Assembly (NCBI RefSeq): GCF_054482595.1 | Contig: NZ_CM137008.1 | Direction: 5' to 3' (one strand) | Length of the DNA: 64,000 nt | Shown here: positions 4,504 through 4,616 of the stretch, in pieces | Layout of the letters: the number at the start of each line of letters is the position of its first letter | How positions within the stretch are numbered: position 1 is the first letter of the stretch | Notes under the pieces: generated by a model | What the model was told of the DNA's origin: nothing | Database searches by the model: none | The model's input: the letters and a program-made list of their open reading frames with translations, nothing else | Translations under genes and position numbers: made by a program

Positions 4504-4616
4504 ATCACGCTCCGTGAAGAAAAATCGCAATATGACAAATATGAACGGCTTCTGACATTTTGCATTTACTTTCCTGTGATGGAGTGCTGATATCGACAAC
4601 CTCGCAGGAGTCCACC
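4504..4616. promoter_or_regulatory. Divergent control region between the sensor kinase gene and the ABC transporter operon
   Basis: 113-bp gap between divergent start codons; contains direct repeat ATATGA-caa-ATATGA (4530-4544) and an AGGAG SD before ATG 4617. Confidence 0.4.

Follow-up and report, generated by a model that had tools for sequence, protein, structure and literature searches.

The ATATGA direct repeat between lmvK and lmuX, a published LmvR (RbfR) binding site, and its conservation across genera

Described systems and gene context of the repeat

Response regulators of the OmpR/PhoB family bind tandem sites in which the half-sites are typically spaced by 10-11 bp. The pho box of PhoB has the form CTGTCAT-N4-CTGTCAT, with an 11-bp period, and the torR-torC region of E. 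coli K-12 contains four tor boxes: two adjacent copies of CTGTTCATAT (10-bp period), followed by CCGTTCATCC and then by another CTGTTCATAT, all of which are directed toward torC. TorR reportedly represses torR via tor boxes 1-2.

The two-component system encoded at the locus studied here has been described twice. It was named RbfS/RbfR (Z5692/Z5684) by Liu et al. (2022, PNAS; PMC9860305), who reported riboflavin sensing and whose paper presents a 21-nt stretch of the ler (LEE1) promoter footprinted by RbfR, together with 167 peaks obtained by ChIP. Yang et al. (2023, mBio; PMC10128022) named the same system LmvK/LmvR and the associated operon lmuKAIZYX. The same regulator also drives the LEE virulence genes.

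In the 64-kb stretch of DNA analyzed in this study (the window), these genes are carried by E. coli OI-167 (O-island 167 of EHEC), which is sited between yjdP and yjcS, at a position where it takes the place of the allose utilisation genes of strain K-12 (PMC10128022). The upstream flank (window positions 1-2241) comprises the terminal part of the phn operon (phnN, phnO and phnP) and yjdP; the downstream flank is represented by yjcS. The island is an accessory element, found in 410-421 of the 5,426 complete E. coli genomes, those of O157:H7 and O145 among them.

The gene context matches that of the published locus, with lmvK divergent from lmuXYZIAK and lmvR convergent at the far end. The lmvK (rbfS) gene (2242..4503, minus strand) encodes a hybrid histidine kinase of 753 aa containing HAMP, HisKA, HATPase_c and REC domains (PMC9860305, PMC10128022). 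Its start codon (CAT on the plus strand, 4501-4503) is separated from the ATG of lmuX (4617-4619) by an intergenic region of 113 bp (4504..4616), exactly as given in the preliminary description of this DNA.

The lmuXYZIAK operon (4617..10679, plus strand) encodes, according to Pfam matches and RefSeq annotation, the ABC ATPase LmuX (4617-6137), a permease (6134-7108), a sugar-binding protein of the ribose type (7127-8068), a D-lyxose/mannose isomerase (8123-8806), a class II aldolase (8821-9681) and a PfkB kinase (9678-10679); co-transcription of these genes and their dependence on LmvR were reported previously (PMC10128022). The response regulator of the OmpR/PhoB family that binds the operator is encoded by lmvR (rbfR; 10676..11383, minus strand), and its two domains, Response_reg (PF00072) and the winged-helix Trans_reg_C (PF00486), were identified in Pfam at 1.2e-25 and 1.8e-22, respectively.

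Some features of individual gene products were also recorded. The window strain has an intact lmuX gene. The counterpart in E. coli O157:H7 PV15-279 (locus L001, 12318-13838) carries the change Q486*, which deletes the last 21 residues, and RefSeq marks this copy as a pseudogene containing an internal stop; the operon was characterised in this same serotype. No HPt domain was detectable in LmvK/RbfS (2242-4503, minus strand), unlike in TorS. The sugar-binding protein of the lmu operon is a distant relative of TorT (a match in the 4e-11 class), a kinship that could point to binding-protein-coupled sensing.

The operator and the promoter of lmuX

The repeat ATATGA-CAA-ATATGA occupies positions 4530-4544, precisely where it had been placed in the preliminary description. 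Its two copies (4530-4535 and 4539-4544) are in direct, not inverted, orientation and, when the preceding A is included, the motif becomes AATATGA-N2-AATATGA, a 7-mer repeated with a period of 9.

This repeat is the already published LmvR (RbfR) binding site within the lmuX promoter of EHEC O157:H7 EDL933. We regard the site as known because the intergenic sequence, the repeat, the flanking genes, the EMSA primers and the ChIP summit all coincide. The lmuX promoter of EDL933 OI-167 has the same site, repeat and flanking genes as the window, and the intergenic sequences are identical. The region 4490-4630 shows 100% identity to O157:H7 genomes, including that of E. coli O157:H7 PV15-279, and the single difference across 4300-4800 is located at position 4483, within lmvK. 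The primers used for EMSA in PMC10128022 fall at positions 4386-4625 of the window, and the published ChIP summit corresponds to position 4548, four bases off the repeat.

On this identical sequence, Yang et al. (PMC10128022) demonstrated binding of the regulator, protection of the repeat, loss of binding upon deletion, occupancy in vivo, and induction dependent on LmvK/LmvR and mannose. The results were as follows: (i) a 240-nt probe of the lmuX promoter was shifted by LmvR in EMSA, (ii) purified LmvR protected the region from -41 to -62, containing ATATGA-N3-ATATGA, against DNase I, (iii) a probe devoid of the 22 protected nucleotides was no longer bound, (iv) the ChIP-seq summit (5215274) preceded the lmuX start (5215205) by 69 bp, (v) overexpression of lmvR increased lmuX expression 694-fold, and (vi) deletion of lmvR or lmvK reduced lmu expression on mannose.

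The repeat had previously been proposed, from the window alone, to be a tandem half-site for an OmpR-family regulator. This proposal is borne out by the domain structure of LmvR (REC plus Trans_reg_C) and by the published footprint, which covers the repeat. The EMSA and DNase footprinting that had been suggested as a check had given binding and protection (-41 to -62), and the expected sensitivity of binding to removal of the repeat is seen with the 22-nt deletion probe (PMC10128022). The suggested 5'-RACE of both transcription starts has been realized in part, namely for lmuX, whose start was mapped by this method (Yang et al. 2023, PMC10128022).

The site itself is therefore known, and what is new here is its footprint across genera, a refined core motif, a likeness to the tor box (reversed, and phased at 9 bp) and feedback that may act on lmvK. 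Neither the cross-genus conservation nor the A/C polymorphism at position 4530, the resemblance to tor boxes or a discussion of the drop in lmvK expression is found in PMC10128022.

We consider it very probable that the repeat acts as the operator of the lmuX promoter, through which LmvR activates lmuXYZIAK. Half-site 1 (ATATGA, 4530..4535, plus strand), with its invariant core TATGA (4531-4535), lies inside the published DNase I footprint (PMC10128022). Half-site 2 (ATATGA, 4539..4544, plus strand) is invariant in 39/39 loci and is followed by an equally invariant AC (4545-4546).

Since the 22-nt footprint must include positions 4530-4544, the published footprint limits would place the lmuX transcription start at 4585-4592. 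With a start near 4588 assumed, the region protected by LmvR (about 22 nt, -62 to -41) would correspond to 4526..4547 on the plus strand.

The putative -35 hexamer of lmuX is CTGACA (4552..4557, plus strand; 5/6 to TTGACA), which is invariant in 39 loci, and the putative -10 hexamer, 17 bp further downstream, is TGTGAT (4575..4580, plus strand; 4/6 to TATAAT), which is 97-100% conserved and fits a start at 4585-4592. Both were read by eye, as matches weaker than the threshold of the consensus scan, which revealed neither a terminator nor a sigma-70 promoter (at least 9/12) between 4400 and 4720. The lack of a strong sigma-70 consensus fits an activator-dependent lmuX promoter.

The published footprint is placed at -41 to -62 relative to the lmuX start (PMC10128022), and we infer from the above assignment that the operator is centred near -51 and abuts the putative -35 hexamer CTGACA at 4552-4557. 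A Shine-Dalgarno sequence of lmuX, AGGAG (4606..4610, plus strand), was read from the sequence; it is conserved, and indels of 1-2 nt occur near it among the aligned loci. A scan of 4400-4720 against Rfam (E<=1) detected no RNA family, and therefore no riboswitch or leader.

These data suggest a mechanism in which phosphorylated LmvR (RbfR) would bind the two TATGA half-sites, 9 bp apart centre to centre, as a presumed head-to-tail dimer. From its position near -51 of lmuX, beside the weak -35 sequence CTGACA, it would recruit RNA polymerase. Signalling by LmvK would in this way turn on, through LmvR, the lmuXYZIAK operon for uptake and catabolism of mannose/lyxose. Through this site, sugar uptake in EHEC is coupled to an acquired two-component system that senses mannose/lyxose, a link that has already been published.

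Tandem sites of this family are usually spaced more widely. The period of the LmvR half-sites is 9 bp in 39/39 loci, short of the family norm of 10-11 bp, and this period, although atypical, is a genuine property of LmvR sites.

Two further candidate sites in the promoter were considered and rejected. A third LmvR box, TCTGACAT (4550-4557; TGA phased by 9 bp and then by 11 bp), falls beyond the limits of the published footprint, and the -35 hexamer is the better reading of this sequence. In a candidate CRP site, TGTGATGGAGTGCTGA (4576-4591), the second half-site matches at only 2/5 positions, and its location is unfit for class I or class II activation at lmuX.

Conservation across genera and the divergent lmvK gene

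A scan for orthologues, with one genome per species, identified 41 loci whose kinases are 52-98% identical. They are distributed among Escherichia, Citrobacter, Enterobacter, Leclercia, Lelliottia, Phytobacter, Pseudenterobacter, Huaxiibacter and Silvania, and they retain the divergent kinase–transporter layout with a distal regulator gene. The LmvR site accompanies lmvR in every genus. Beyond EHEC, the system and its operator are widely distributed among Citrobacter, Enterobacter and related genera.

In a MAFFT alignment of 39 lmuX upstream regions, the sequence TATGACAAATATGAAC (4531-4546) forms 16 consecutive columns that are invariant in 39/39 loci. The adjoining block with the -35 hexamer (4547-4569) is 96% conserved, and that with the -10 hexamer (4575-4598) is 90% conserved. 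The corresponding values are 63% for the kinase side (4504-4529), with 1 of 26 columns invariant, and 72% for the third-codon positions of lmuX (from 4617), 7% of which are invariant.

Base 4530, the first of the repeat, is A in 13 of the 39 loci and C in the other 26, and the conserved core is therefore TATGA-N4-TATGA(AC) and not the two hexamers. The perfect hexamer repeat described previously thus holds for Escherichia and most of the Citrobacter loci, but not for the majority of the loci. For searches of the LmvR regulon, TATGA-N4-TATGAAC is a better motif than the perfect hexamers, which are specific to E. coli.

The distance between the operator and the ATG of lmuX is near-constant (within a few bases) across the loci. 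The distance to the lmvK start is 25 bp in the window and exceeds 1 kb at the furthest among the orthologous loci. Because the spacing to lmuX holds while the kinase start drifts, the operator is functionally tied to lmuX. The conservation shows that the operator is under strong purifying selection, at a near-constant distance from lmuX, across genera. Conservation also extends past the footprint (4547-4598), which points to a further selected element, such as the core promoter, a divergent promoter or the site of another factor.

The stretch from the operator toward the -10 hexamer (4547-4569), including the spacer sequence TTTTGCATTTAC, is far more conserved than a promoter spacer requires. 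It may contain the divergent lmvK promoter, the UP element of this promoter, or the site of a second factor.

Escherichia and Citrobacter have an intergenic region of 113-114 bp; that of the other genera is 119-229 bp long and reaches 497 bp and 1,262 bp in two loci (L027 and L033, respectively). Between the operator and the kinase start of Enterobacter, Leclercia, Lelliottia and related genera (L014-L043) we observed REP-like palindromes (CCCTCTCCC-N-GGGAGAGGG, with GGGTGAGGG often coming next), whose insertion accounts for the longer intergenic regions outside Escherichia and Citrobacter. L027 (9590-9990) contains a tandem array of about five REP-like units, and in L033 (8718-9979) an additional ORF of 109 aa, with a signal-peptide-like N-terminus, is located between the operator and the kinase gene.

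The contig carrying L027 (CACSKA010000007.1) is labelled Chryseobacterium sp. 18061. It contains a typical Enterobacteriaceae lmvK-lmu locus, with a kinase 77% identical, and the assembly is probably mislabelled or contaminated.

A conserved second copy of TATGA-N4-TATGA upstream of lmvR (11384-11661 and the equivalent regions of L005-L043) was found in none of the genera, despite the reported autoregulation. In E. coli, the lmvR upstream region is AT-rich and bears no relation to its counterparts in the other genera, which share repeated GTGAC motifs, a CGTCAAAATTGACG palindrome and the inverted repeat GTGAC-N15-GTCAC.

On the opposite strand, a speculative candidate for the lmvK promoter overlies the operator (4529..4558, minus strand). 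It is composed of ATGTCA (4558-4553), an 18-nt spacer and CATATT (4534-4529), and matches the consensus at 8/12 positions. In Table S3 of PMC10128022, overexpression of LmvR is accompanied by a decrease of lmvK (EDL933_5436) to 0.26-fold (an approx. 4-fold fall, padj 2.7e-16), and lmvK is one of only two genes that fall. This decrease was left out of both the figure and the text discussion of that paper, and it suggests a feedback loop.

We tentatively propose, giving the idea somewhat less than even weight, that the operator is bifunctional in the compact layout of E. coli and Citrobacter, where LmvR activates lmuX and would also repress the divergent lmvK gene. One LmvR dimer, bound 25-45 bp ahead of the start codon of lmvK, could occlude the putative lmvK promoter. 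Such occlusion would create a negative feedback on the sensor kinase, parallel to the repression of torR by TorR but acting on the kinase gene.

Several observations speak against repression of lmvK: rbfS was up 3-fold with riboflavin (PMC9860305), lmvK was unchanged by mannose or lyxose (PMC10128022), and in most genera the operator lies at a great distance from the kinase start. The drop in lmvK expression could also reflect interference from the 694-fold induced divergent promoter instead of occlusion. The preliminary description had assumed that both promoters overlap the operator region; this is shown for lmuX, whose promoter has been mapped, and is less certain for lmvK, whose start is distant in other genera.

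A stronger version of this idea, in which the block is kept mainly as the core promoter of lmvK and LmvR is primarily an autoregulatory repressor, with activation of lmuX being secondary, seems to us improbable. It would account for the overlap of the candidate ATGTCA-N18-CATATT with the half-sites, for the 0.26-fold level of lmvK upon LmvR overexpression (PMC10128022) and for the orientation of the half-sites, which, as tor boxes, are directed toward lmvK. The positions are also similar, the LmvR site being located 25-45 bp from the ATG of lmvK and tor boxes 1-2 18-38 bp from that of torR. However, the near-constant distance is to lmuX and not to lmvK, in many genera the site and the kinase gene are kept apart by REP-like arrays or an extra ORF, and the effect on lmuX is 694-fold, compared with 4-fold on lmvK.

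Comparison with tor and pho boxes and significance of the repeat

On the minus strand, the LmvR site reads CCGTTCATAT-TTGTCATAT. The distal half-site, CCGTTCATAT (the reverse complement of 4539-4548), matches the tor box decamer CTGTTCATAT at 9/10 positions, and the proximal half-site matches it at 7/10 positions, or at 8/9 with a 1-nt deletion. The lmvK–lmuX and torR-torC regions are also alike in being compact and divergent and in carrying direct repeats for an OmpR-family regulator, the boxes being located approx. 20-45 bp from the start codon of the divergent gene.

The two regions differ in several respects: (i) the LmvR site comprises two half-sites, in contrast to the four boxes of torR-torC, (ii) its phasing is 9 bp and not 10 bp, (iii) its boxes point away from the activated operon, toward lmvK, and (iv) the divergent gene encodes the kinase and not the regulator. 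Because the tor-box-like half-sites are directed toward lmvK and placed 9 bp apart, LmvR would activate lmuX in a reversed orientation and with unusually tight phasing. Neither the reversed orientation nor the 9-bp phasing was discussed in PMC9860305 or PMC10128022.

LmvR shares 36% identity with TorR and scores 163 bits with the NCBIfam TorR equivalog model, compared with a cut-off of 275 bits; on these grounds we rejected its classification as a TorR orthologue. It remains below the cut-off of every NCBIfam equivalog, and the OmpR and PhoB models score the same as the TorR model or better. We also rejected the classification of the site as a tor box, in view of its 9-bp phasing, its opposite orientation and a regulator that is not a TorR orthologue.

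The site resembles the pho box in that tandem direct repeats are placed beside, or replace, the -35 hexamer of an activator-dependent promoter, and its reverse-strand half-site TTGTCATA is similar to the pho-box half-site. The pho box differs in its 11-bp period and in its opposite orientation relative to transcription.

We regard it as extremely unlikely that a core-genome regulator, TorR or PhoB, cross-talks into the island and uses the site as a tor or pho box in place of LmvR. Such cross-talk is suggested by the 9/10 match of CCGTTCATAT, which is the sole tor-box match with <=1 mismatch in the 64 kb, by the alignment of GCCGTTCATATTTG-TCAT to the region of torC box 4 (17/18, with one gap) and by the resemblance of TTGTCATA to the pho-box half-site CTGTCATA. 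It is contradicted by the spacing of 9 bp, compared with 10 bp in tor and 11 bp in pho boxes, by the orientation, which is opposite to that at torC, and by the co-occurrence of the site with lmvR in every genus. In addition, lmvR and lmvK are both required for induction, and the site is protected by purified LmvR (PMC10128022).

The assignment of the repeat to LmvR finds a parallel in the ler footprint of the same regulator, which contains, on the reverse strand, ATATAA-ATT-ATGTGA (a 10/12 match with the same N3 spacing). The ler site is a degenerate copy present in a horizontally acquired virulence promoter, with a match that is marginally above that of shuffles of the 21-mer (P about 0.05).

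Statistical analysis of the window sequence alone provides weak evidence for a function of the repeat. When the 113 bp were shuffled 20,000 times with dinucleotides preserved, 1.9% of the shuffled sequences contained a 6-mer repeat with precisely the observed gap, 11.6% contained any 6-mer repeat with a period of 6-12, and 2.7% contained a 7-mer repeat with a period of 7-12. The exact pattern ATATGA-N3-ATATGA is present once in the 64-kb window, and the pattern with <=2 mismatches is not enriched (7 found, 4 expected).

The caution, expressed in the preliminary description, that the repeat might have arisen by chance was thus fair with respect to the sequence alone (1.9-11.6% of the shuffles), but it is overturned by the comparative data, in which TATGACAAATATGAAC is invariant in 39/39 loci, and by the published binding. 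That the repeat is a functionless chance feature of an AT-rich intergenic region, as the 11.6% of shuffles and the unenriched mismatch pattern might suggest, is practically inconceivable and already refuted, given 16 invariant columns in 39 loci of about nine genera (compared with 7% at third-codon positions) and the EMSA, footprint, deletion and ChIP results on the identical sequence.

A third, imperfect copy of half-site 1 was noticed at positions 4590-4599, where ATATCGACAA corresponds to ATATGACAA with a one-base insertion. This copy falls at, or just past, the predicted start of lmuX transcription. The sequence GATATCGAC, though located outside the published footprint, is conserved in most genera.
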